9,831 bases of DNA from a virus (Duplodnaviria > Heunggongvirae > Uroviricota > Caudoviricetes): IMG/VR virus record IMGVR_UViG_2602041644_000006, positions 1 to 9,831 of that record, one strand, 5' to 3'. A program made the position numbers and the translations under genes. Of the stretch, positions 1-9,831 are shown piece after piece; within the stretch, counting starts at the first letter, position 1, and every line of letters starts with the position of its first letter. The notes beneath the pieces are model-generated. The model ran no database searches. It had not been told where the DNA came from and was given only the letters and a program-made list of their open reading frames with translations.

Positions 1-1314
1 CTAACCTACTGATTTTAATAAGTCTCTTGTGTCACTTTGGTGACCATGGGACATCATTGGGACATAATCTGCCAGCTTCTGATTCAGCATTGCGATCTGT
101 TCTGCATTACTGTCAGTCATCCATGCTCCGTATACATTGAATACCATCTGGGCACTTGCATGGCCCATCTGGCTGGCAATAAAGCTTGGGTTTGCTCCGG
201 CAGATAATGACCAGCACGCATAAGTGTGTCGTGACTGGTATGCTTTCCGGTGCCTGATGCCCGCACGCTTAACGGCTGTTTCCCATGAGTCGCCAATAGA
301 ATCTACCTTGTAGATAAAACCGACCTGTTTGCTTTTTCTAACCACCTGGGGGTTAAATACGAAAGTACATTCATGATTCACTGAGCGCCCATATTCACGT
401 AGTTGAACCTTGATGTGGTGCTGCTTACCCAGTCTTGTCATTTCAGCCTGATTTTTCAGGACACTGATAGCGGGCTGGATAAGATGCACAACCCTGTTTG
501 TACTTGCTTCAGTTTTAGGTAGAGTGAACTCACTGAGTTTCGTATAATTGCGCCTGATAGTAATAGTTCCTGCTTTCAGATCGATATCTTCCCAGGCCAG
601 GGAGACCAGTTCACCGTGACGCATTCCTGTGTACACAGCCAATGACCACAGGTTTTTCGTCTGCTGATGTCGGCAAGCATCTATCAGGCGAATAAATTCG
701 TCACGAGTTAGCGGATCTGGCTCTGCCCTGGCTCTTTTAAGAGGCTTAATTCCCTGGAAGGGATTTGCTTCTAAGTAACCGTGATCTGCAGCAAACTGAA
801 ACATTCCAGCGATAGTTGTCATGTAATAATTTACAGTAACGACGCTCCGTCCTTTTGCTGCTGCTTTGTTTTTCGTTGAATTCTGATACCCGGTCAGTAA
901 ATCTTTCCTGATATACAGCAATTCCTCTTTGGTTACCGATGACACCAGTCTGCTGCCTCCAATTTTCGGAACCATCGTTCTTGCAACGGATTCATAGCGA
1001 TTGAATGCATTTGCAGAGATTTCCATTCGTTTCAGATCCAGCCACTTTTCTTCAAGTTCCTTCACCGTAATTTCTTTTTTACTTACCCCAAAAGCCTGAA
1101 GGTTGGGGGAGTCAGGGAACTGTGCGGCATAATCAAAGCTTCCTGTGCGGATGGCAAAACATACCGATGTCCGCAGTTCCCCGGCGATCTTCCTGTTCTT
1201 GGCAGTGTCAGGGACACCAAGATTTTCCCTGACACGTTTACCTTTAAAATTAAACCAGATGCGTAATGTGCCGCCGTGGTTTTCGACGCCTGTTGGATAT
1301 TTGACTTTATCCAT
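1..1314 (-). CDS. int: Phage tyrosine integrase (site-specific recombinase), 437 aa
   Basis: Complete ORF: ATG at 1312-1314 preceded by a GGAGGT Shine-Dalgarno, stop (TAG) at 1-3 on the window edge. C-terminal half has the R...HxxR...Y layout of tyrosine recombinases (TGMRHGEL, RHTYACWSLSAG, FNVYGAW). Terminal position next to an excisionase-like gene fits a prophage integration module. Confidence 0.9.
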   Translation of the reverse strand: MDKVKYPTGVENHGGTLRIWFNFKGKRVRENLGVPDTAKNRKIAGELRTSVCFAIRTGSFDYAAQFPDSPNLQAFGVSKKEITVKELEEKWLDLKRMEISANAFNRYESVARTMVPKIGGSRLVSSVTKEELLYIRKDLLTGYQNSTKNKAAAKGRSVVTVNYYMTTIAGMFQFAADHGYLEANPFQGIKPLKRARAEPDPLTRDEFIRLIDACRHQQTKNLWSLAVYTGMRHGELVSLAWEDIDLKAGTITIRRNYTKLSEFTLPKTEASTNRVVHLIQPAISVLKNQAEMTRLGKQHHIKVQLREYGRSVNHECTFVFNPQVVRKSKQVGFIYKVDSIGDSWETAVKRAGIRHRKAYQSRHTYACWSLSAGANPSFIASQMGHASAQMVFNVYGAWMTDSNAEQIAMLNQKLADYVPMMSHGHQSDTRDLLKSVG

Positions 1315-1369
1315 TGATACCTCCAGACGCCCAAGAGCGATACGAGCTTACATACTTCATGGCATTAAA

Positions 1370-1606
1370 TCACCCAGGTTGTTTGTTTTTCATTGAAGCG
1401 ACCCAGGCATCTATTGCTTTTCTGTTATACATACATTCACTGGAAGGCTTTGGATTACCGTCTGGTGATACGTGAATATACTCTCTTCCAACCATCCAGC
1501 ATTCTTTCCGGGCCCGAAGAATTGTGCCTGGTTTGAGCCCGGTAATTGCGATTAGAACGCTTTCACAAACCCATTCATTGGGAGCCAGTTGAATCACATT
1601 GCCCAT
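1370..1606 (-). CDS. xis: Excisionase-like small DNA-binding protein (Xis/TorI-like), 78 aa
   Basis: Small basic ORF immediately upstream of int on the same strand. ATG at 1604-1606 has a GAGGT Shine-Dalgarno that overlaps the stop of the preceding gene. The motif WMVGREYIHV resembles the winged-helix core of lambda-type Xis. Confidence 0.55.
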   Translation of the reverse strand: MGNVIQLAPNEWVCESVLIAITGLKPGTILRARKECWMVGREYIHVSPDGNPKPSSECMYNRKAIDAWVASMKNKQPG

Positions 1607-1614
1607 GCATTACC

Positions 1615-1761
1615 TCACACAACACTCAGCCCACGGCAGTGGCACCACACTTCAAACATTCGTTTCACAATTTCACGACAGTAGAAACCGTCAACATCTC
1701 GTGTCAGGTCATAGCGATTGCCGTAACGCTGGTGGACCCATCGTTCAAATGCTTTATTCAT
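1615..1761 (-). CDS. Hypothetical small protein, 48 aa (MNKAFERWVHQRYGNRYDLTRDVDGFYCREIVKRMFEVWCHCRGLSVV)
   Basis: Not in the supplied ORF track; found by hand translation. ATG at 1759-1761 with an AGGAAG Shine-Dalgarno 6 nt upstream; TGA stop at 1615-1617 sits inside the xis ribosome-binding site, fitting translational coupling. Confidence 0.3.
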   Translation of the reverse strand: MNKAFERWVHQRYGNRYDLTRDVDGFYCREIVKRMFEVWCHCRGLSVV

Positions 1762-1764
1762 TCT

Positions 1765-2007
1765 TTACTTCCTTTTCATGGCCCGTAATTTTTTCAGATG
1801 AGCTTCCTGCTCTGTTTCTGCCAGAATTTTGCGGTACTCCTGGTGGTCAATATGTTCGAACAGGCAGTTTAACTCACCAATGCGTACCCGCCCGGATCGT
1901 CCGTCCATCCGTCGAAAGAACACTGAGTGCTCAGTGATGCGAGTAATCACCACGGGGTATCCGGCTCTGTCCGTGTATATCTGACTGCGTTGAATCAAAG
2001 CGAACAT
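1765..2007 (-). CDS. Hypothetical phage early protein, 80 aa
   Basis: The track ORF 1765..2043 starts on TTG; the internal ATG at 2005-2007 (MFALIQRSQIY...) lies 4 nt after the stop of the upstream micro-ORF and is the more likely start. Packed in the same co-directional chain. Confidence 0.4.
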   Translation of the reverse strand: MFALIQRSQIYTDRAGYPVVITRITEHSVFFRRMDGRSGRVRIGELNCLFEHIDHQEYRKILAETEQEAHLKKLRAMKRK

Positions 2008-2011
2008 GTGG

Positions 2012-2095
2012 TTATCCCCATCGACAAATCGAGAACACAACAAACGCTGCTGCGAATACCACCCCCAGAGTTACGATTGCATCACGCCAGCTCAT
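2012..2095 (-). CDS. Candidate 27-aa hydrophobic micro-protein (MSWRDAIVTLGVVFAAAFVVFSICRWG)
   Basis: Hand translation. ATG at 2093-2095 overlaps the TGA stop of the DUF551-like gene (ATGA) and uses its GGAGGTG sequence as a ribosome-binding site. The product is essentially one transmembrane helix. TAA stop at 2012-2014. Confidence 0.25.
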   Translation of the reverse strand: MSWRDAIVTLGVVFAAAFVVFSICRWG

Positions 2096-3018
2096 TGATT
2101 CACCTCCTGCGGCGGTTCTGGCAGCGGCATCCAGTGGGTTACCTCCTTGAGATACAGGTCTTCGCCACCACCGTCATCCCAAGTGGGCTTGCCATCATTA
2201 AACCAGTCGCCATATACGCCGACCTGAGTGTTGGGGATGCTTGGTGGGTAGTTGTTTTTAAAGTCAGCAGCTAACACATAGCATTGTCGCTCTCCCATTT
2301 CTGGCATTCGCTCACTACAGCTTATCCAACCATCCGGAGTTACCGGAACTTGTGGAATGGCTGTCTGCTCTCGAACGTCATTAGGCGCTATAGGTTCTGC
2401 TGCCAACTGACTGGCATATTTGTTAATGGTAACGATAAGCTCTTGCTCAGCCTCATCCAGACAATCACCGATACCTCGCCTGTCACCGTCAAAATCATCG
2501 AAATCGGCACGAATCCTGGCAACCTTCAGGATTGCGGACAACACCTCACTAGGAATTGCCGGATAGTTGGTTGACGTTTCCGCGATTTCCCGAAAATTAT
2601 TGGTTGACGAATTCTTGTTTTCCCGAAAGTTTCCGGACTGAAGCATGGCGGCGCGGCAGGCGTTCCATATTTCGGCAGCAATATCGCGCTCGCTATCGGT
2701 TAATTTGTACGTTGAAACATAGCCAGAGAGCATTTCTACGTTTTCCGGAGTTGCTTCTTCAGGCACTACCGGTGCTGGAGGGGCGGCGTAAATGCCCTCT
2801 ATCACTAAATGTTTGCGCTCAAAATCATCTGGCTCTCGATGATATACGTAACTCCAATCACCAAGGTTATCATTGCGCCTGCAACGGAAACCTATCGGCT
2901 CTGCTTCCAGCGATGCCAGAGCAATTCGTGCCAGTTCCATTTGTTCGCCACGGGTAAGTCCGTTATCAAGCGGATTTTTAATGAATAATTCGATACGTTC
3001 TTTGGTAATAGTGGTCAT
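2092..3018 (-). CDS. Phage accessory protein with a DUF551-like C-terminal domain, 308 aa
   Basis: ATG at 3016-3018 preceded by AAGGTGA. The C-terminus (GDWFNDGKPTWDDGGGEDLYLKEVTHWMPLPEPP) matches the W/P-rich signature I recall for DUF551 domains found on lambdoid early-region proteins. The N-terminal two thirds are acidic and unassigned. Confidence 0.6.
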   Translation of the reverse strand: MTTITKERIELFIKNPLDNGLTRGEQMELARIALASLEAEPIGFRCRRNDNLGDWSYVYHREPDDFERKHLVIEGIYAAPPAPVVPEEATPENVEMLSGYVSTYKLTDSERDIAAEIWNACRAAMLQSGNFRENKNSSTNNFREIAETSTNYPAIPSEVLSAILKVARIRADFDDFDGDRRGIGDCLDEAEQELIVTINKYASQLAAEPIAPNDVREQTAIPQVPVTPDGWISCSERMPEMGERQCYVLAADFKNNYPPSIPNTQVGVYGDWFNDGKPTWDDGGGEDLYLKEVTHWMPLPEPPQEVNQ

Positions 3019-3020
3019 AG

Positions 3021-3212
3021 CTATTTCACCTTAATCTCAACATTTCGCAGCTTTAGCTCTACTGGCAGGTCTGACTTTCCTGTTAATGATAATGCGAGAT
3101 TTTCTGGAGTAATGAGAGCAGTTATTGTTTTCCCCCTCGCCAGACGAATAATCATTCGTATCTCGCGATCGTCACATGCTCCCGGTCGAACAATTGATAT
3201 TTGTCCGTCCAT
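3021..3212 (-). CDS. Hypothetical small protein, 63 aa
   Basis: ATG at 3210-3212 with an AAGGAGAG Shine-Dalgarno; separated by 1 nt from the upstream stop, and its own stop is 2 nt before the next start. Confidence 0.45.
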   Translation of the reverse strand: MDGQISIVRPGACDDREIRMIIRLARGKTITALITPENLALSLTGKSDLPVELKLRNVEIKVK

Positions 3213-3213
3213 C

Positions 3214-3708
3214 TCACTCTCCTTTGATGCGAATGCCAGCGACGCGTAATGCGTGTTCTAGGTCAATCAGGTAAAGCCAACTGCCATTTTCTTTAGGTAT
3301 CATGACATGTCGCTCATCTGCATTTATCGGGTGTCCATATCGAAGGTCGTAGCGAGTCGGTAATTGAACTTCCCGCGCTTCCAGTTCAGCAATACGCTTG
3401 CACCCATCAGAGATAACTCCCTCGTAATACTCGCGCTGCTCGTTGAGTTTTGATTTTGTCTCCTCAAGCTCAACGCGCAGCTTCCCTACCGTTAGCGCAA
3501 TATCCTCGTTCTCCTGGTCGCGGCGTTTGATGTATTGCTGGTTTCTTTCCCGTTCATCCAACAATGCCAGCGCGATATCTGGCGAAAAGTGCTTCATAAA
3601 ATCGTTAAGCGCATTAATTCGCTGATCGAAAGGCATTACAGGTGCTTCACCAGCAATTTTTGTTTTTTCAGCGATTTCACGAAGCTTTTGATAATCAATC
3701 TTGCTCAC
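3214..3708 (-). CDS. Ead/Ea22-like coiled-coil phage early protein, 164 aa
   Basis: GTG start at 3706-3708 overlaps the upstream TGA (GTGA) behind an AAGGAGG Shine-Dalgarno. N-terminus MSKIDYQKLREIAEK and a long charged helical middle resemble Ea22-family proteins of lambdoid phages. Confidence 0.5.
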   Translation of the reverse strand: MSKIDYQKLREIAEKTKIAGEAPVMPFDQRINALNDFMKHFSPDIALALLDERERNQQYIKRRDQENEDIALTVGKLRVELEETKSKLNEQREYYEGVISDGCKRIAELEAREVQLPTRYDLRYGHPINADERHVMIPKENGSWLYLIDLEHALRVAGIRIKGE

Positions 3709-4118
3709 TGGTTGCCTCCTTCGCGAAGCTGTTCAGCAATACTTACGCATATCTCTGCGCCTCTAATCAGCCCCGGAACGTTCTTGTTTGGCCCAACTTC
3801 ACCATCAACAAAATCAATCATCGCGTTACGAGCCATATCCACCCCCTGCGCACGTACTTCAGCCAGGAGAGCGTCGGTAGCTGGGGTTTCCGTGAAGTTG
3901 TCCTCCCAACCGTAGTACTCCTGACGACAGAAGTTATTAAATTCCTTCTCCGACTGTTTAAGCGCCGCATTCTCCGCTGCCAGCGCCGCGCACCTGGCCT
4001 CAAGAGCGGCAACCACTTCCTGATGGTCTTTGTACTTAACGTATGAGCCGGAGATGTCATCACCTTCGGTGTTTAGCCATGCGTCATTGCAATTCACTGC
4101 GTAGGTTCTGATGCTCAT
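3705..4118 (-). CDS. Hypothetical coiled-coil phage protein, 138 aa (start at MSIRTY)
   Basis: The track ORF 3705..4238 has a junk-like N-terminal extension. The internal ATG at 4116-4118 overlaps the stop of the upstream 60-aa ORF (ATGA) and follows GGGAGAG. Contains a helical segment ALEARCAALAAENAALKQ. Confidence 0.45.
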   Translation of the reverse strand: MSIRTYAVNCNDAWLNTEGDDISGSYVKYKDHQEVVAALEARCAALAAENAALKQSEKEFNNFCRQEYYGWEDNFTETPATDALLAEVRAQGVDMARNAMIDFVDGEVGPNKNVPGLIRGAEICVSIAEQLREGGNQ

Positions 4119-4297
4119 GCTGATGCTCTCCCGCCCCTGACAGACGCCAGGCCAGTCAATAAAGTATCCGCAATGCCTACCCTCAGACGTGCGCGCAGGA
4201 TAAATGCCGTTATGACCGGCAAAATATATGCTACCCATTCATCTTGCGTTGCCTGTTCCGCCGCCTCGCGCAGTTCTTGATAGTTAATGTTGCTCAC
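4115..4297 (-). CDS. Small ORF (60 aa) with an Ea22-like N-terminus; possible truncated or frameshifted paralogue
   Basis: GTG start at 4295-4297 behind AAGGAGG, in a junction module nearly identical to the one at 3696..3720. The first ~21 residues (MSNINYQELREAAEQATQDEW) parallel the start of the 164-aa Ea22-like protein; the remainder is low-complexity. Confidence 0.3.
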   Translation of the reverse strand: MSNINYQELREAAEQATQDEWVAYILPVITAFILRARLRVGIADTLLTGLASVRGGRASA

Positions 4298-4533
4298 TGG
4301 TTGCCTCCTTTACGGATCTGCGCTGCGATGCACGAAAAAAAAGACTTTCGCGTATGACTGTTAAGAGCTGGCGCGAACGCCGCGTTAAGAACGGCGGCAT
4401 CACAGCCGTCATCGATATAGAGCGCAATTTTTTTCTCCAGGCGTGCTTTGGCTTCCTGCAACTGCATATCCCGGCACGCACGCGGGATATACTCAGCAAT
4501 TTGAGCGATAGATTTTTCGTTCTGTTTAAACAT
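4294..4533 (-). CDS. Hypothetical phage early protein, 79 aa
   Basis: ATG at 4531-4533 lies inside the end of the upstream gene (AAGCATGTTTAA) after GAGGTG. C-terminus ...QIRKGGNQ is paralogous to the end of the 138-aa protein (...QLREGGNQ). Confidence 0.45.
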   Translation of the reverse strand: MFKQNEKSIAQIAEYIPRACRDMQLQEAKARLEKKIALYIDDGCDAAVLNAAFAPALNSHTRKSFFSCIAAQIRKGGNQ

Positions 4534-4729
4534 GCTTCACCTCGATAGGCTTGATGGTATCGATCAGCAGTCGGCGGCGAGTATTTTCTGCAAAGTGGCG
4601 GCGTCCGGTTTCTTTGTGGTAAAACTCGTTTTTTCCGACGACCCACATCCGCTTTGTCTGGTGCAGTTTTTTTACCTGCGGACCGTCTCGGGTGATAACA
4701 ATTCCTGTATGAGTTTTTATCACGCTCAT
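4526..4729 (-). CDS. Hypothetical basic small protein, 67 aa
   Basis: ATG at 4727-4729 overlaps the TGA stop of the upstream gene (ATGA). Basic composition. Confidence 0.45.
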   Translation of the reverse strand: MSVIKTHTGIVITRDGPQVKKLHQTKRMWVVGKNEFYHKETGRRHFAENTRRRLLIDTIKPIEVKHV

Positions 4730-5088
4730 TTTTTATTCTTCGGTGCTTTCGGCATTACTGCCCAGTGAGTGATATTGACGTTTTCAAGGTCCCCGACCTG
4801 AAATGTCCACAGCCATTCTCCGGTTTCTTTTTGTCCCCAGGTGTACCAGAGAGAACGCCAGCCAATTAGCCAGCCTTCTCCGTTAGCATCAAATAACAGA
4901 ACACTTTCATTTGCTGGCGGCAGTTCAGCTGACACTGGTATTATTTTGTTTTCCAGTGCCGCGCATTTAGCTTCAAGCGCATCGAATTTACGTACCAGGT
5001 ACTCAGCATTTGTTTCATTCACTTTCAGATCTCGTGGTACACATTTCCCGCGAAGAAACCCTTCCATTTCGAAAACATTCATGCGCAT
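4726..5088 (-). CDS. yfdS: YfdS-like prophage protein, 120 aa
   Basis: ATG at 5086-5088 with GGAG 8 nt upstream. Length and position directly after a YfdR-like gene match my recollection of the K-12 CPS-53 yfdP-yfdQ-yfdR-yfdS order. The symbol is assigned from memory, not from an alignment. Confidence 0.55.
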   Translation of the reverse strand: MRMNVFEMEGFLRGKCVPRDLKVNETNAEYLVRKFDALEAKCAALENKIIPVSAELPPANESVLLFDANGEGWLIGWRSLWYTWGQKETGEWLWTFQVGDLENVNITHWAVMPKAPKNKK

Positions 5089-5615
5089 TTGCGTAACTCC
5101 GATAACTCGTTAAAACGTTCCATAAACATCCCGTAGGCATGGCCTGGTGACAGTGGAATAACTTTGAACATCTCTGTCGCCGGGATACCTTCCAGTACAG
5201 GCCAGAAAGAGCCATCATCAAGCCCGAGATCGCGACGTTCGGTTGCCAGCATAATGAGATCGGCATATTTCACTGGCGTGCTCATAACAGGAGGTAACCC
5301 GTATTTCTCACGGATTACGGCGTCTATTTTTTCTTCCATCCGTTTATAGTCAGGAAGAAGGCGTTTCAGTGGAGCTGGGATGTCCTGGCAATACGCTTCT
5401 GTTGCATCATGCATTAACGCTTCAAAAGCAAATTCCTGCGGCACCAGCTGGCTGCAAAGCACCGCATGTTGGGCGACGCTGTAGAAGTGAGAAAGATGAC
5501 CGGCAAAGCGACAGATATTTGAAAGGGAAACCGCGATATCGTTAATAACGATGTCATCTTTATTTATCTTGTCATAATAAAAATGCTTCCCGGAAAAAGT
5601 TTTAATAAATGACAT
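5079..5615 (-). CDS. yfdR: HD-domain phosphohydrolase, YfdR-like (5'-deoxynucleotidase family), 178 aa
   Basis: The track ORF starts on GTG at 5642; the ATG at 5613-5615 (MSFIKTF...) has a GGAGAA Shine-Dalgarno 5 nt upstream. H...HD signature is visible (AQHAVL ... LMHDATEAY). Size and neighbours fit CPS-53 YfdR. Confidence 0.7.
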   Translation of the reverse strand: MSFIKTFSGKHFYYDKINKDDIVINDIAVSLSNICRFAGHLSHFYSVAQHAVLCSQLVPQEFAFEALMHDATEAYCQDIPAPLKRLLPDYKRMEEKIDAVIREKYGLPPVMSTPVKYADLIMLATERRDLGLDDGSFWPVLEGIPATEMFKVIPLSPGHAYGMFMERFNELSELRKCA

Positions 5616-5708
5616 TTTGTTCTCCACGTATATGCGCTGCACCGCGCTGAATTTGGGTAAAAGGAAGCCCTCACCATCCGGTGATTATTGAGTTAATTAC
5701 GTTTCCAT

Positions 5709-5730
5709 AAATGCCCCCGCAGGGGCATTT
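5709..5730. other. Perfect intercistronic hairpin (9-bp stem AAATGCCCC / GGGGCATTT, 4-nt loop) between yfdQ and yfdR
   Basis: Read directly from the sequence. It sits in the 127-nt gap after the yfdQ stop, which is the only sizeable gap in the minus-strand chain. No adjacent U-tract on either strand, so it is probably not an intrinsic terminator. Confidence 0.4.
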
Positions 5731-5742
5731 GCAGTAATGAAA

Positions 5743-6567
5743 TCAGGCGGTGAAAGTACCAATAAAGGTTTCTACTTTGCTGTCTTTGAATTTCTCAACA
5801 AGCAGATCACGAAATTCGTTAGCCATATCTTCCTGCACCGCTTCCAGCTGAATAATGCGCAGAACCAGTACAGGACGATCGCCAGTGATAATGCTGAGGC
5901 GTAATTTAAACGGACGTTCTTTCAGACCTTCAAACGGAACGCATTTAAATTCAAATGCCACTGGCATAATGTCTTTGGTCTTCGCTTCGACAGATTCCAT
6001 CAGGGAGCGTTTGCCGCTGAAGTCATTATCTTCAAAATCAGCGGTCTGGTTTGCTTCAATCGTGATTTTACGGATTGCCGCAGCCGCTTTTGTTGCCTGA
6101 ATGGCGTCACCATTAGCATCAAAGCCCACAAGGTAGTCGGCCCAGTCTTCAATCCATTCTGCCAGTGATTTCTGGGAGTTACGCTCGCCGTTAACAGACA
6201 ACAGGGCAGAGAACGGTGCTGTCTTTTTCAGTTTGAGAGTGGCGGTGTTATCTGCGTGACCTGGTTCATCAATAGTACCCAGGTTAAGCACACTGACGGC
6301 ACGCATATTATCAGCATCGATAAAGCAGCGGGTGCCTTCATCTGCAAGATCTTTAGAATAACGGGTAAAGTCATCGATGCTGGCAGTGGAAAGCGCACCA
6401 CGGAAACGGAAGCGATTTAAATTAAATTTTTCCAGATCATGAATGCGGAAATTCTCAGGCAATGCCACAGCATCGGCACCAATCTTACTGATAATTTCAT
6501 TAACACCCTGAGCAGAAATAAGGGCATGGATTTGATTAATTGCGGTTGCGTCTAAGTTCTGAGACAT
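5743..6567 (-). CDS. yfdQ: YfdQ-like prophage protein (DUF2303-type), 274 aa
   Basis: ATG at 6565-6567 with a GTGAGGA Shine-Dalgarno. Length and position between YfdP-like and YfdR-like genes match CPS-53 yfdQ as I recall it. Confidence 0.7.
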
Positions 6568-6632
6568 AATAAGTCCTCACTATATTAAGATATTCAGTGA
6601 TGAGATAAATAATCAGTTAATTAAGAACGATA

Positions 6633-6995
6633 TTAATGACCTGCTGCGCGGAGTTTTCCGTCAGGTTCACCGGCAAGAGTCAGTAATTGTCCCTGGTCTT
6701 CCTGCAGAATAGTCAGGCGACCACCGCGATTGACATACATCGGCGTTTCGGTGGTGTCTTCTTCAGAAATTTTCCCGCGGTTAGTCGGGCGAACATATGA
6801 GAGTTTGTGTTTGATTTTCACACGGTTCTCATCAAACGGTTCGATTTCCAGGTTGAGCGAGACCTTACCTTTGGTTTTCGTGTTCATCACACCGGAAGCG
6901 ACTTCACTGAGAACTGCGCCGATTTTGGTTTCAAATACGCCGCCGTCCAGCTCCCCGATAAATGCCTGCACATCAGTACTGCGTTCGCTAGCCAT
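6633..6995 (-). CDS. yfdP: YfdP-like prophage protein, 120 aa (start at MASERSTDV)
   Basis: The track ORF 6633..7313 carries a junk-like in-frame extension across the GC-rich leader. The ATG at 6993-6995 has an AGGAGCAG Shine-Dalgarno and gives a 120-aa product. Confidence 0.6.
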   Translation of the reverse strand: MASERSTDVQAFIGELDGGVFETKIGAVLSEVASGVMNTKTKGKVSLNLEIEPFDENRVKIKHKLSYVRPTNRGKISEEDTTETPMYVNRGGRLTILQEDQGQLLTLAGEPDGKLRAAGH

Positions 6996-7043
6996 TTTGC
7001 TGCTCCTCATCATATCGACCCTGCAAGGTCGGTTAGTTTCTCC

Positions 7044-7132
7044 ACAAAACAGAGAAGAACACCTGCGGTGACTGCCGCCCGGATGGATTGGGTTATGAGC
7101 CCGTCGTCCGGTGATGCTCTTCTCTGTTTTGT
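7044..7132. repeat. 15-bp perfect inverted repeat (ACAAAACAGAGAAGA ... TCTTCTCTGTTTTGT) enclosing a 59-nt GC-rich insert with nested short stems
   Basis: Arms at 7044-7058 and 7118-7132 are exact reverse complements. The insert contains further complementary pairs (CCGGA/TCCGG, GCGG/CCGC). Confidence 0.6.
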
Positions 7133-7140
7133 AAAAAGGA

Positions 7141-7177
7141 CGGTACCAGCCGGAAGCAAGGGTACAAGCTGGTACCG
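7141..7177. repeat. 10-bp perfect inverted repeat (CGGTACCAGC ... GCTGGTACCG) with a 17-nt loop
   Basis: Arms at 7141-7150 and 7168-7177 are exact reverse complements, immediately next to the 15-bp inverted repeat. Confidence 0.6.
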
Positions 7178-7396
7178 CCAGGACTACACACAGCATAAAG
7201 TTGTGGTGCCGGGTGCCTCCCGGTGCCTGGCGAAGGTTGCACACCAGGCGGGTGGGTATCCACAGAAGGTCGACTGTCAGCCTCAACCTTAACCCGCGTG
7301 CGCTGAGCCGCATTCACCACAACGCTAAGGATTCTCTCTGGTTGAAAATACTTAGCTGTTATGTGCCTGCTTTTAGCCACATCAGGCGAGGTGGAC

Positions 7397-7448
7397 CTGG
7401 TTATTCCCCAACAACAAGGATTCGGTTAATCTGGTTATCCCCAACAAC
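7397..7448 (+). repeat. Two direct repeats CTGGTTAT(T)CCCCAACAAC, 34 bp apart, just upstream of the 7464 start
   Basis: Copies at 7397-7415 and 7431-7448 differ by one inserted T. A third partial CTGGTT occurs at 7338-7343. The sequence after each core diverges. Confidence 0.55.
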
Positions 7449-7463
7449 GCAAAAGGAAAAGAA

Positions 7464-7898
7464 ATGTCCGGTAATATCTACACGCTATACAAATCCCACT
7501 GTGAAAATGTTGGAAAGTATCGGGGCATTGAAATCAGTGGGGTAGTGTCATCAGTCGAAATAAGCAAAGTTGAATCAAGGGCAACATTACTTACTCTTTT
7601 GGACCTTGTCTTACATGAGCACCGGAAGAAATTCGGCACTCCCTATAATCAGTTGAATGGGAAAAAGGCTCTGGTTCACCTTATTCTGATGAAGCATCAC
7701 TGGATGCCAAAACAGATTAATGAGATGAAATTTGATGAACTTCTTCTTTCAATTCAGGATGAACTCACACTTGATAAAATAAGCGTAACCGCCCAGAAAT
7801 TTTTAGATTATCGAGACTGGAGATCACAAATTCATCACTTTGATGATTTTGACGAAAATGAATGGGATCCTAATTTGTCTGCACAATATCTAAAGTAA
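7464..7898 (+). CDS. AT-rich opposite-strand gene, 144 aa, unknown function (possible moron)
   Basis: ATG at 7464 preceded by AAAGGAAAAGAA. It is the only plus-strand gene left of cro, visibly more AT-rich than the adjacent leader, and its last 29 nt overlap the 3' end of the convergent 68-aa gene. I recognise no family for the product. Confidence 0.6.
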   Translation: MSGNIYTLYKSHCENVGKYRGIEISGVVSSVEISKVESRATLLTLLDLVLHEHRKKFGTPYNQLNGKKALVHLILMKHHWMPKQINEMKFDELLLSIQDELTLDKISVTAQKFLDYRDWRSQIHHFDDFDENEWDPNLSAQYLK

Positions 7899-8076
7899 CA
7901 TCCTGTGATAAAACCGTGATTTCCTGATCCAGTTTTTTTAAGGAGTCTATTGTTTCCTGTCGATAAGACAGCACTTCACGAAGCTGGTTTATAGCTGCCA
8001 GCTTCTTTGTCATCCACTCATAAATTTCCTCATCTGTGTAGCCAGGCGCGACGATTTTGGGTTCTGTTTTGTGCAT
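7870..8076 (-). CDS. First gene of the leftward early operon, 68 aa, unknown function
   Basis: The track ORF starts on TTG at 8091; the ATG at 8074-8076 has a GAGGAG Shine-Dalgarno 8 nt upstream. It lies downstream of the predicted PL and the boxA-like element. The N-terminus is not arginine-rich, so it is not obviously N-like. Confidence 0.5.
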   Translation of the reverse strand: MHKTEPKIVAPGYTDEEIYEWMTKKLAAINQLREVLSYRQETIDSLKKLDQEITVLSQDVTLDIVQTN

Positions 8077-8120
8077 TTCACATCTCCTCAAGTTATCAGT
8101 TACTTGTTGATGGGGACCAG

Positions 8121-8133
8121 ATTGTTAAAGAGC
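8121..8133 (-). promoter_or_regulatory. rrn-type boxA match (GCTCTTTAACAAT on the minus strand) in the PL leader
   Basis: Matches 13 consecutive bases of the E. coli rrn leader boxA (TGCTCTTTAACAATTTA) as I recall it. It sits directly 3' of a hairpin, in the boxB-then-boxA order of rrn leaders, about 45 nt upstream of the 68-aa gene start. Confidence 0.5.
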
Positions 8134-8134
8134 T

Positions 8135-8160
8135 AAGCGTCCTGTAGGGCGCTTTTTTGT
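8135..8160 (+). terminator. Intrinsic terminator on the plus strand (8-bp stem, UGUA loop, U6 tract); on the minus strand the same hairpin is weaker and has no U-tract
   Basis: AAGCGTCC-TGTA-GGGCGCTT followed by TTTTTTGTT. On the plus strand the stem includes one G-U pair; on the minus strand that position is a C-A mismatch. Positioned to stop plus-strand transcripts from the 144-aa gene before PL and cI. Confidence 0.6.
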
Positions 8161-8241
8161 TGCTAACGAATCATCCTGGACTTCATATGCCCCAGGCGGC
8201 TACTTCGTGGGCGTCCTGCCTGTTCGTTATCTTTGATATAA

Positions 8242-8270
8242 AATCTAACTTAACTTAGTTATTATGGCAA
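8242..8270 (-). promoter_or_regulatory. Candidate PL promoter (-35 TTGCCA, 17-nt spacer, -10 TAGATT) overlapped by an operator
   Basis: Read on the minus strand: TTGCCA (8265-8270), 17 nt, TAGATT (8242-8247). The operator 8245-8258 spans the spacer and -10. It lies directly downstream of the cI stop, the expected position for OL/PL. Confidence 0.4.
8245..8258. promoter_or_regulatory. OL-type operator CTAACTTAACTTAG (CTAA-N6-TTAG family)
   Basis: Same 14-bp dyad pattern as the two sites between cI and cro. Extra CTTAG half-site-like motifs occur at 8281-8294 and 8303-8311. Confidence 0.5.
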
Positions 8271-8323
8271 GAGAAAACACCAAACTTTTCTTAGTTCGGT
8301 GCCTTAGTTAGAGAAGAGAGGTC

Positions 8324-8950
8324 TTAGAGTTCGTATTGAACTCCTTTGACTACACCAATGATAAGGCAATTACCATTGATAGGGATGTTGGGATACCGAG
8401 GATTTAATGGCACTAAAAACTTTTGAGGGCCATCGATGACTAATTTTTTTACTGTAGCTTCGTTTGTTCCATCAAGTCGAGCGATGACTATTTTTCCATG
8501 ACGAGGTTCTGCATCTGGATCTACAATCACTGTTGCGCCTTCTGGTATTGTTGGGAGGCCATTAGGGTTAGTCATGGAGTCACCTTTAACCTCTAATGCA
8601 AATGAGTTATCACCAATCTTTAATGATGTATCTACCCACTTGTCCACTTCACTAAACACTTCTGCTGCCCTGCACTCAGTAAACTGCCCAGCCTGAACCC
8701 ACGATATTACAGGAACTCTGCGCATGTTTGTGACGAGTTTGCCTTCAAACTCAGCACCATAAAGAATGTAATCTATTGACGTATTGAAGAACTTCGCTAA
8801 TTTCGAAAGTGCCTCCCCACCAGGGGTATTGATGTCTTTCTCCCAGTACCCCACAGCAACGTCGCTTACTCCACAAAATTTACCCAATTCTTTCTGGGAC
8901 GTTCCGGTAACTCTTCTCAGAGCTTTTATACGCTGACCAACCGTTTCCAT
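8324..8950 (-). CDS. cI: CI-type prophage repressor (HTH plus LexA-like S24 autopeptidase domain), 208 aa
   Basis: N-terminal helix-turn-helix (QKELGKFCGVSDVAVGYWEKD), an Ala-Gly cleavage-site candidate (VQAGQF), and the Ser/Lys dyad context (GDSMTNP ... TVKKLV). Divergent from a cro-like gene across an operator-rich 97-bp spacer. Confidence 0.9.
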   Translation of the reverse strand: METVGQRIKALRRVTGTSQKELGKFCGVSDVAVGYWEKDINTPGGEALSKLAKFFNTSIDYILYGAEFEGKLVTNMRRVPVISWVQAGQFTECRAAEVFSEVDKWVDTSLKIGDNSFALEVKGDSMTNPNGLPTIPEGATVIVDPDAEPRHGKIVIARLDGTNEATVKKLVIDGPQKFLVPLNPRYPNIPINGNCLIIGVVKGVQYEL

Positions 8951-8972
8951 AGGAGCACCATTTCTTGAATTG

Positions 8973-8986
8973 CTAAGTAATCTTAG
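8973..8986. promoter_or_regulatory. OR-type operator CTAAGTAATCTTAG (perfect CTAAG/CTTAG dyad)
   Basis: 14-bp palindrome in the cI-cro spacer, just upstream of the predicted PR -35. Confidence 0.55.
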
Positions 8987-8992
8987 TTTTTA

Positions 8993-9021
8993 TTGACCAA
9001 AGATAGATTTGTAATTAGCAT
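8993..9021 (+). promoter_or_regulatory. Candidate PR promoter (-35 TTGACC, 17-nt spacer, -10 TAGCAT)
   Basis: TTGACC at 8993-8998 and TAGCAT at 9016-9021, flanked by operators, about 27 nt upstream of the cro start. Confidence 0.45.
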
Positions 9022-9035
9022 CTAACAAAACTTAG
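9022..9035. promoter_or_regulatory. OR-type operator CTAACAAAACTTAG
   Basis: Second CTAA-N6-TTAG site, centred 49 bp from the first and directly after the PR -10, where bound repressor would block PR. Confidence 0.55.
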
Positions 9036-9047
9036 TTTGGAGGGCGT

Positions 9048-9248
9048 ATGACAACTGACGATATCGAAAGCTACTTCGGCAGTATTGAGAAAGTTGCTGC
9101 TTTTTTCGGCATAACAACTGAAGCCGTTTATCAGTGGCGAAACCGTCCGGGCCAGTTAATTCCAAAAGGACGTGCAGCAGAAGCTGCATATAGAACTTGC
9201 GGACGGTTGCCATTTAAACCTGAGCTTTATGAAAAATCTAATGGATAA
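9048..9248 (+). CDS. cro: Cro-like small HTH regulator, 66 aa
   Basis: ATG at 9048 with a GGAGGG Shine-Dalgarno. Divergent from cI, with a helix-turn-helix-like segment (IEKVAAFFGITTEAVYQWRNR). Confidence 0.75.
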   Translation: MTTDDIESYFGSIEKVAAFFGITTEAVYQWRNRPGQLIPKGRAAEAAYRTCGRLPFKPELYEKSNG

Positions 9249-9831
9249 ATCGATTAACAGAAACCACAGAACGATGAGGCTAACCGTGGGTAAGCATCAC
9301 TGGAAAGTAGAAAAACAGCCTGAGTGGTACGTGAAAGCTGTCAGAAAAACTATCGCAGCGTTGCCGGGTGGTTACGCTGAAGCAGCTGACTGGCTGGATG
9401 TAACAGAAAACGCATTATTTAACCGCCTTCGTGCCGATGGCGATCAGATTTTCCCGCTGGGATGGGCAATGATTTTGCAACGTGCTGGTGGAACTCACTT
9501 CATTGCTGACGCTGTGGCGCAGTCTGCAAATGGCGTCTTTGTGTCTCTTCCTGACGTCGAGGATGTGGACAACGCCGATATTAACCAGCGCCTGCTGGAA
9601 GTCATTGAACAGATTGGCAGTTATTCCAGACAGATTCGTTCGGCAATCGAAGACGGTGTGGTGGAACCGCATGAGAAGACAGCAATTAACGAAAAAATGG
9701 TGGAAAGTACGTGTCGAACGTGTAGGTATCCCGATGTTAACAGCCATCCCCCTACTGACATTGCCGCAATTTATTATGCTGCAATACGTCAAAGGGAAAG
9801 CGGAAAGTTGGCCTGGACTGTCATTGTATGA
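9241..9831 (+). CDS. CII-like / YdaT-like regulatory protein downstream of cro (start uncertain)
   Basis: Long ORF right after cro ending in TGA at 9829-9831. In-frame starts are possible at 9172 (inside cro), 9229, 9241 (ATG overlapping the cro stop) and GTG 9286 (with GAGG upstream). Family assignment is by position and general character only. Confidence 0.55.

Follow-up and report, generated by a model that had tools for sequence, protein, structure and literature searches.

What is a gene doing when it is set backwards into the leftward lytic operon of a prophage? The question is raised by positions 1 to 9,831 of the IMG/VR virus record IMGVR_UViG_2602041644_000006 (this whole stretch of 9,831 nucleotides [nt] is referred to here as the window), which comprise the integrase-to-cII segment of an Escherichia coli lambdoid prophage of the e14/SfV/SfIV type. 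Several E. coli chromosomes and phage vB_EcoM-689R6 match the window at 100% identity, and Shigella phage SfIV matches it at 98.5%. The gene in question, designated A (7464–7898, plus strand), encodes a protein of 144 amino acids (aa), and a sequence-only reading had picked it out as a possible moron or defence gene. A belongs to the ECs1072 family of phage-associated proteins and is met head-on by a second gene, designated B (7870–8076, minus strand; 68 aa). Together, the two may form a unit in which A excludes other phages from the lysogen and B allows the phage to escape A.

A genuine gene and its overlooked partner

A is a real gene. It is under strong purifying selection, acting on the protein sequence as well as on transcription: across 47 distinct alleles from 76 loci, 20 differences are synonymous and 2 are non-synonymous, and 17 of the 21 variable sites lie at codon position 3. 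The product scores 157.8 bits against NCBIfam NF033230, "ECs1072 family phage-associated protein" (E 1.7e-46; profile positions 2–142 of 142), for which the curated cut-off is 70 bits, and it matches phrog_5286 end to end (302 bits; residues 1–144 of 144); the earlier view that the protein could be assigned to no family therefore falls. Members from Sakai, ST64B, Klebsiella, and Pantoea also pass NF033230. An exhaustive HMMER scan resolves the family into 76 clusters at 50% identity, nearly all of 145–155 aa, and its range takes in Shigella serotype-converting phages, Salmonella ST64B, and prophages of Klebsiella, Yersinia, Pectobacterium, Proteus, Serratia, Morganella, and Pantoea. Of 5,426 complete E. 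coli genomes, 406 (approximately 7.5%) contain at least 80% of a 1,031-nt query spanning both genes (window 7300–8330).

Modelling with AlphaFold2 from a 48-sequence alignment predicts a compact, all-alpha protein with high confidence (predicted local distance difference test, pLDDT, 94.1; predicted template modelling score 0.88). As computed from its sequence, the protein is soluble and slightly acidic, with no transmembrane segment (maximum 19-residue Kyte–Doolittle mean 0.84, and at most 1.57 in the family). Positions L50, R54, L64, G66, A69, H72, and W134 are conserved across the family; R54, H72, and W134, together with W80, make up a conserved surface.

The selection pattern, the NF033230 and phrog_5286 matches, and the conservation of the clusters are the grounds on which A is held to be real. 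A chance or decaying reading frame without function would suit a gene with no functional annotation and no detectable promoter; however, this explanation, with a probability close to nil, is already refuted by the selection and conservation data, namely the 20:2 ratio of synonymous to non-synonymous differences, the 76 clusters, the pLDDT of 94, the passing of NF033230, and the presence in 406 of 5,426 genomes.

Other features seen by the sequence-only reading are borne out. For an identical E. coli locus, RefSeq annotates no plus-strand coding sequence other than A to the left of cro, and A has its own ribosome-binding site, a Shine–Dalgarno element AAGGA 8–12 nt 5′ of the ATG. It is also more AT-rich than its surroundings: its GC content is 37.9% against 46.6% for the window (0.50–0.53 immediately to the left), and GC is lower than this in 0.8% of all 435-nt windows. 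The entries NF033230 and PHROG 5286 carry no functional annotation, and their descriptions mention neither a partner gene nor an orientation rule nor the four operon contexts set out below; the literature on WP_000016389 and PhiR29 yielded nothing useful.

What had been overlooked is the convergent partner, and A is thus no solo gene. B, annotated in RefSeq as a coding sequence of 207 nt, is the first open reading frame (ORF) downstream of PL and converges on A, covering its last 29 nt; a Shine–Dalgarno element GAGGAG lies 7 nt 5′ of its ATG at 8076. The product is an acidic coiled-coil protein (isoelectric point of the partner 4.5–5.2) that scores 119.6 bits against phrog_1744 and is 41% identical to genes annotated ydfC over 66 of its 68 residues (1–66; E 2e-9). 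A hidden Markov model (HMM) of seven B sequences reveals a shared motif, M..EP.(I/F)..PG.T.EE...W(L/M), followed by a coiled coil; the N-terminal motif EP-x-I/F-x-x-PG-x-T-x-E-E-x-x-x-W is common to B and the Sb50-like proteins of ST64B. B is also a relative of YdfC of the Qin prophage, for which we know of no function; unlike B, many YdfC-family genes have no adjacent A. An N-like antiterminator was considered for B and ruled out, as the protein is acidic and lacks an arginine-rich motif, and sister phages do without it.

The setting of the pair follows from the operators. Two copies of CTAA-N6-TTAG (8245–8260 and 8281–8296) match the OR copies in the cI–cro intergenic region (8973–8988 and 9022–9037), and a leftward promoter-like site (8270→8242) overlaps them. 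These shared repeats, together with the promoter-like site, place the probable OL/PL next to cI; A thus lies, as judged from the repeats, inside the PL transcription unit, downstream of PL and on the opposite strand. The sequence-only reading had put the slot between the PL operon and cI and had likened A to rexAB, and neither fits, as rexAB lies between cI and PL, whereas A lies within the PL unit. The rexAB genes are co-transcribed with cI.

Orientation rule, partnership, and exchange of cargo

In 11 of the 12 contexts examined, the B-family HMM finds a convergent B homologue directly 3′ of A. B follows A in Serratia, Yersinia, Pectobacterium, Proteus, ST64B (as Sb50), the Klebsiella phage KPP5665-2, and the name-giving Sakai locus, as well as at the non-seed loci of Pantoea and Morganella (E 4e-7 to 3e-3). 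A and B share 29–224 nt at their 3′ ends in most contexts, and the full range in loci other than the window is 29–314 nt. The pair occupies four settings, which span lambdoid and P2-like phages: the PL operon next to cI (the window, Yersinia, Pectobacterium, Proteus, Serratia, and Morganella), the PR operon between cII and O (Sakai Sp4, the location of ECs1072 itself), the late operon between Q and holin (ST64B and the Klebsiella phages), and a P2-like early operon between cox and the replication gene (Pantoea). In all settings examined, B is transcribed in the direction of the lytic operon, and A lies antisense to that operon.

The pair is lost unevenly. Salmonella phage 118970_sal3 carries an Sb50-like B between Q and holin (L144, 1991–2188, minus strand) with A deleted, and it retains a 66-codon remnant of the 3′ end of A beside B (A-HMM E 9e-7); A was therefore lost secondarily in this phage, in which the pair is ancestral. 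In SKA5 (L143), an Sb50-like B lies directly between Q and holin, and A is again deleted. B thus persists without A, and A without B was seen once (L139). This asymmetry is the pattern expected if an antidote is indispensable and an effector dispensable.

ECs1072-family genes are unannotated in ST64B (L134, 3281–3715, plus strand) and in the Klebsiella phages (KPP5665-2, L135, 3345–3791, plus strand). The ST64B sb50 coding sequence (119 aa) looks over-extended relative to the conserved B-type protein of 85 aa.

Among close relatives of the window, the contents of the slot are exchanged. The exact sequence of the plus-strand terminator that follows the pair occurs in 124 of the loci compared, of which 106 also have the core of an STnc100-like RNA element upstream, and in these loci the core-to-terminator stretch takes five discrete lengths, each with a different plus-strand gene of 144–167 aa. 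The A/B pair accounts for the 930-nt class (76 loci). The 814-nt class (L004; 21 loci) encodes a 163-aa coiled-coil protein with two CxxC pairs, and the 823-nt class (L022; 4 loci) encodes a 165-aa variant of it; a 167-aa unknown helical protein characterises the 941-nt class (L053; 4 loci), and a 164-aa protein with two hydrophobic helices the single locus of 1017 nt (L015). No alternative cargo protein has a Pfam or NCBIfam match, and the L015 protein, with its two transmembrane helices, is not detectably SieB. Slot contents differ again in SfV/SfII and in mEp460. The flanks are common to all classes, comprising the leader up to approximately 7427 and the sequence from approximately 8120 onward; 1,933 E. 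coli records match them.

Replacement in close relatives, deviant base composition, and a terminator on its own strand are all moron traits of A, and the five cassette classes between identical flanks support the slot as a moron cassette site and A as a moron, as had been suggested. A fixed position in all related phages had been named as speaking against this. The same orientation rule does hold across genera; close relatives, however, swap the cargo.

It is a further question whether A is a moron on its own. A solo lysogenic-conversion gene might alter host fitness, stress, or virulence, with B an unrelated backbone early gene at a site where morons land. B-family genes are widespread without A, the slot holds unrelated cargo genes without B, the AT-rich composition is typical of morons, A has no defence-family match, and expression of ECs1072 in Sakai varies with growth phase. 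Chance insertion nevertheless explains poorly why B should follow A in 11 of 12 contexts, in four operons, and in both lambdoid and P2-like phages, and the remnant beside B in 118970_sal3 marks the pair as ancestral there. A solo moron is thus considered rather unlikely.

A candidate exclusion effector and its putative antidote

The layout of the pair recalls several known systems, two of which, Tha/Ith and Tai/Ati, have been proven by experiment to pair defence with counter-defence. In lambda (J02459), sieB is a plus-strand Pfam SieB gene in the PL operon, with its stop codon abutting that of N. Lambda SieB, which has counterparts in P22 and Rac, is like A in place, orientation, and similar size, reading rightward in the PL operon, and the sieB likeness drawn by the sequence-only reading is apt. 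Both run head-on into the first PL gene, which is N in lambda and B in the window, a resemblance of position only. SieB is a membrane protein with PF14163 and N-terminal hydrophobic helices, whereas A has neither; sieB faces the gene of the essential antiterminator N, whereas A faces a cassette-borne partner. A was also tried as a SieB and rejected: it has no hydrophobic segment and no match at E ≤ 0.1 to PF14163, against which lambda SieB reaches 103.5 bits. In the Yersinia prophage L009 (6001–7321), a Pfam SieB gene stands right behind A/B, on the strand of A and before cI, and two opposite-strand accessory genes are thus stacked in one slot.

In Staphylococcus aureus phage 80alpha, the defence gene tha is overlapped by a small inhibitor gene, ith, on the opposite strand; transcription of the two is mutually exclusive and tied to lysogeny versus lysis, an arrangement termed a "noncontiguous operon" (PMC11087260). 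A/B resembles Tha/Ith in that a small overlapping gene lies opposite a larger one. A HEPN protein of the Tha and HepS type (Rx4-6H in a four-helix HEPN fold) was ruled out for A, in which no Rx4-6H is conserved and the fold differs. In E. coli phage phi80, the immune gene taiEcA, of the tail-assembly-inhibition family, lies in inverted orientation in the Q-dependent late operon, to which its counter-defence gene atiEcA belongs, and Tai/Ati is found in enterobacterial lambdoid prophages, at several moron hotspots (PMC11364771). It is in this Q-to-lysis region, too, that the ECs1072-family genes of ST64B and the Klebsiella phages are located. Whereas tai and ati diverge and overlap at their 5′ ends, A and B converge and overlap at their 3′ ends. 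In phi80 delta-ati and 80alpha delta-ith, the titre after induction fell, and escapers bore lesions in the respective defence gene. A is no detectable homologue of TaiEcA (phi80 orf63, 204 aa), for which hhalign with the 48-sequence profile gives a probability of 0.4% (E 0.16), and B is unrelated to AtiEcA in profile and BLASTP comparisons with phi80 orf63/orf64. The resemblance is therefore architectural, not familial. The geometry of a noncontiguous operon is nonetheless present, with A embedded opposite to a PL, PR, late, or P2-early operon and overlapping B.

A is proposed to be an exclusion or abortive-infection effector expressed in lysogens, with B—made from the lytic operon—and antisense transcription switching it off; we give this reading a probability of roughly 40%. 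A defence function for A is plausible. A and B would constitute one accessory module, a noncontiguous operon set backwards into the lytic operon. In the lysogen, cI would shut PL and leave rightward transcription unopposed, so that A could be made from a putative weak promoter in the shared leader; its transcript would cross B antisense and stop at the plus-strand terminator. A would then act in the cytoplasm as a superinfection-exclusion or abortive-infection effector against incoming phages. Upon induction, or infection by a phage of the same type, PL would fire, B would be the first protein made, and the PL transcript would cross A antisense up to the STnc100-like terminator. Because the layout is convergent, each transcript would carry the antisense of the other gene; new synthesis of A would be blocked through polymerase collision and RNA duplex formation, and B would neutralise existing A, letting the phage escape its own weapon. 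We infer the expression of A in lysogens, its defence function, and its antagonism by B; the support for defence is architectural.

Support for this effector–antidote reading comes from the orientation rule, partner conservation, asymmetric loss, and the layouts of Tha/Ith and Tai/Ati. It comes also from the sieB-like position, the SieB neighbour in Yersinia L009, and microarray data on ECs1072, whose significant signal in Sakai cultures without induction depended on growth phase (PMC2241611), as would fit expression in lysogens. The exchange of cargo between near-identical phages, as in defence hotspots, points the same way.

A number of observations weigh against it. A resembles no known defence, toxin, or exclusion protein in sequence or fold. 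Pfam gives nothing at E ≤ 0.1 for A or for 48 family members, no PADLOC-DB v2 family matches either A or B at E ≤ 0.1, and a profile search of PDB sequences with A finds no match; nor was similarity to a toxin or antitoxin family found for A in Pfam, NCBIfam, and PDB-sequence searches. The fold check that the sequence-only reading had proposed gave a high-confidence model, yet Foldseek found no fold relative in BFVD (best E 0.66). Constraint on B is relaxed within E. coli (10 synonymous to 12 non-synonymous differences). YdfC/Sb50-like B genes are common in phages without detectable A (Evi, PPompW, and SKA5); B may therefore have a backbone role of its own, with A merely inserted beside it. 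The one intact A without B (L139) also counts here. No plus-strand sigma-70 consensus promoter is found at 6900–9100, and KPP5665-2 offers nothing stronger than a weak promoter candidate upstream of its A. Finally, the microarray signal, recorded for a distant member of the family, is indirect evidence.

The partner's acidity and the small, two-gene format also suggest a toxin–antitoxin-like addiction module that stabilises the prophage, with A as the toxin and B as the labile antitoxin; orphan B is common and orphan A rare, and a classical stabilisation gene lies nearby in Sp4. The convergent layout, however, would silence B in lysogeny, when A would be expressed, and a constitutively toxic A would kill the lysogen; moreover, similarity to a toxin or antitoxin family is lacking, and type II toxin–antitoxin pairs are co-transcribed. 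An addiction module is thus very improbable. The main rivals of an effector–antidote pair are the non-defence conversion gene beside a backbone gene, discussed above, and a developmental switch, which is taken up with the flanking elements below.

A wider version of the effector–antidote proposal, possible but doubtful, holds that the A family as a whole is the effector of an unrecognised anti-phage system, with a fold without a PDB or BFVD relative, whose autoimmunity would be curbed by a YdfC-family protein of the lytic operon; the module would have been transferred whole into four different lytic operons in Enterobacterales phages of the lambdoid and P2-like types. In a variant of this, the trigger may be the YdfC-like early proteins of incoming phages, the resident copy being a non-triggering or neutralising allele. 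If the defence and self-protection pair is true, it would be a third, unrelated "noncontiguous operon" answer to prophage autoimmunity and the first such case with a convergent 3′-end overlap; it would also supply a function for the K-12 orphan YdfC family and a new fold among immune effectors. The slot would be a hunting ground, with its shared leader, cassette-specific inverted repeats, common terminator, and at least four further uncharacterised plus-strand cargo genes. Even if the pair is merely a moron, annotations are corrected in SfIV, SfV, ST64B, and the Klebsiella phages.

Elements that frame the slot

Leftward from cro, the order of genes is cro, cI, the A/B region, yfdP-, yfdQ-, and yfdR-like genes, xis, and int. 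The features of the slot and its surroundings are collected in Table 1.

Table 1. Positions in the window of the A/B pair, the neighbouring control region, and the elements flanking the slot.
Feature	Position	Strand	Remarks
Gene A, ECs1072-family protein (NF033230, phrog_5286), 144 aa	7464–7898	+	ATG start; antisense to the PL operon
Gene B, acidic coiled-coil protein, YdfC family (phrog_1744), 68 aa	7870–8076	−	RefSeq coding sequence
Probable OL/PL	8235–8300	−	Two CTAA-N6-TTAG copies and a leftward promoter-like site; placed from the repeats
cI, S24/LexA-type	8324–8950	−	
cro	9048–9248	+	
Intrinsic terminator for rightward transcripts of the slot	8135–8160	+	Stem 8135–8154, then T-run; TTTTTGTT
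STnc100-like structured RNA element (RF02076)	7130–7353	−	Ends in a leftward terminator; bounds the slot on the left, before yfdP
Shared leader of all plus-strand cargo genes of this phage group	7354–7427	+	
Inverted repeat, left arm	7428–7447		AATCTGGTTATCCCCAACAA; just upstream of the Shine–Dalgarno element of A
Inverted repeat, right arm	8104–8123		TTGTTGATGGGGACCAGATT; between the start of B and the plus-strand terminator
Direct-repeat copy of the left arm	7397–7416		In the shared leader

The sequence-only reading had assigned A a dedicated terminator. The terminator exists, but it is not dedicated to A: it lies 237 nt beyond the stop codon, with B in between, and it is common to all cassette classes. 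In sister phages, the plus-strand cargo gene ends approximately 40 nt before the terminator, which follows directly. Since different cargoes have it in common, the terminator belongs to the conserved backbone and serves whichever plus-strand cargo is present.

On the other side, the STnc100-like element matches RF02076 over its full length with 42.4 bits (E 1.2e-6), below the gathering score of 47. In KPP5665-2, the corresponding position beside the A-family gene is taken by a bona fide STnc100 (108 bits); the Pantoea, Morganella, Yersinia, Pectobacterium, Proteus, and Serratia loci yielded no STnc100, which rules it out as an obligatory part of the module. The terminator of the element would end leftward transcripts that have crossed B and antisense-A. 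Two annotations cover the element, an ORF of 226 aa in SfIV (SfIV_34) and, in RefSeq, a "frameshifted hypothetical protein", and in each case an RNA element has probably been mistaken for a coding sequence.

Within the leader, a backbone motif occupies 7364–7396 (GTGCCTG...CAGGCGAGGTGG). Its general form, GTGCCTG-(loop)-CA(C/T)CTCAGGCGG-N-GGTGG(T)ATC, contains a GCCTG/CAGGC hairpin and is kept in the PL context of Escherichia, Serratia, Yersinia, Pectobacterium, and Proteus (upstream of A in L008, L009, L012, and L014). The motif is also present in SfV and mEp460, both without an A-family gene, and is absent in the late-operon context.

An imperfect inverted repeat of approximately 20 nt brackets each cassette, with arms that are particular to the class and covary between classes. 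As RNA, the arms of the A/B cassette would form a duplex of −25.9 kcal/mol, against −11.8 ± 3.1 for shuffles, and the class duplexes range from −18.5 to −30 kcal/mol, against approximately −11.5 for shuffles; the arms of L015 (GTAACCCTC and GAGGGTTAC) differ from the others yet are mutually complementary. The repeat could serve in the pairing of mRNA ends, as an RNase III site in the PL transcript, or as a recombination signal. It is no general feature of the A family, being absent in distant loci.

These flanking elements bear on the remaining rival, in which A/B is a developmental switch of the phage: the convergent, fully overlapping transcription units, and possibly an action of protein A on transcription, would damp leaky lytic expression in lysogens and stabilise lysogeny, or time early and late expression. 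A always lies antisense in a lytic operon, directly after a promoter or antiterminator, terminators on both strands frame the A/B overlap, and the inverted repeats could form long-range RNA stems. Close relatives, however, dispense with A/B and carry other cargo, and the pair is therefore no core regulator. In addition, purifying selection on the protein sequence of A reaches beyond its transcription, and Pfam detects no helix-turn-helix or other DNA-binding family in A or in 48 family members. A switch is accordingly judged unlikely.

Further observations concern the neighbouring sequence. Between PL and the slot, a 60-nt non-coding block (8167–8228) is 86%–95% identical in otherwise differing phages of Salmonella (ST64B), Citrobacter, Yersinia, and Pantoea, and could be an antitermination or operator-distal control element. 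It was rejected as a put- or nut-like RNA, as the leftward RNA folds no better than shuffles (z −0.84). At the right end, a 219-aa ORF (9172–9831, plus strand) fuses the cro overlap with a CII/CP76-type regulator (YmfL-like) and reaches the end of the window; its C-terminal stretch has merely a faint match to the ABC-3C CTD9 domain (E 0.036).

In GenBank, the PhiR29_1 coding sequence (242 aa) probably starts too far upstream, taking in the leader. In SfV (L003), an unannotated ORF of 81 aa (3134–3379, plus strand) lies behind a like leader, with hairpin, AAGGA, and ATG, and converges on and overlaps the annotated orf33; the SfV slot may thus also hold a convergent pair.

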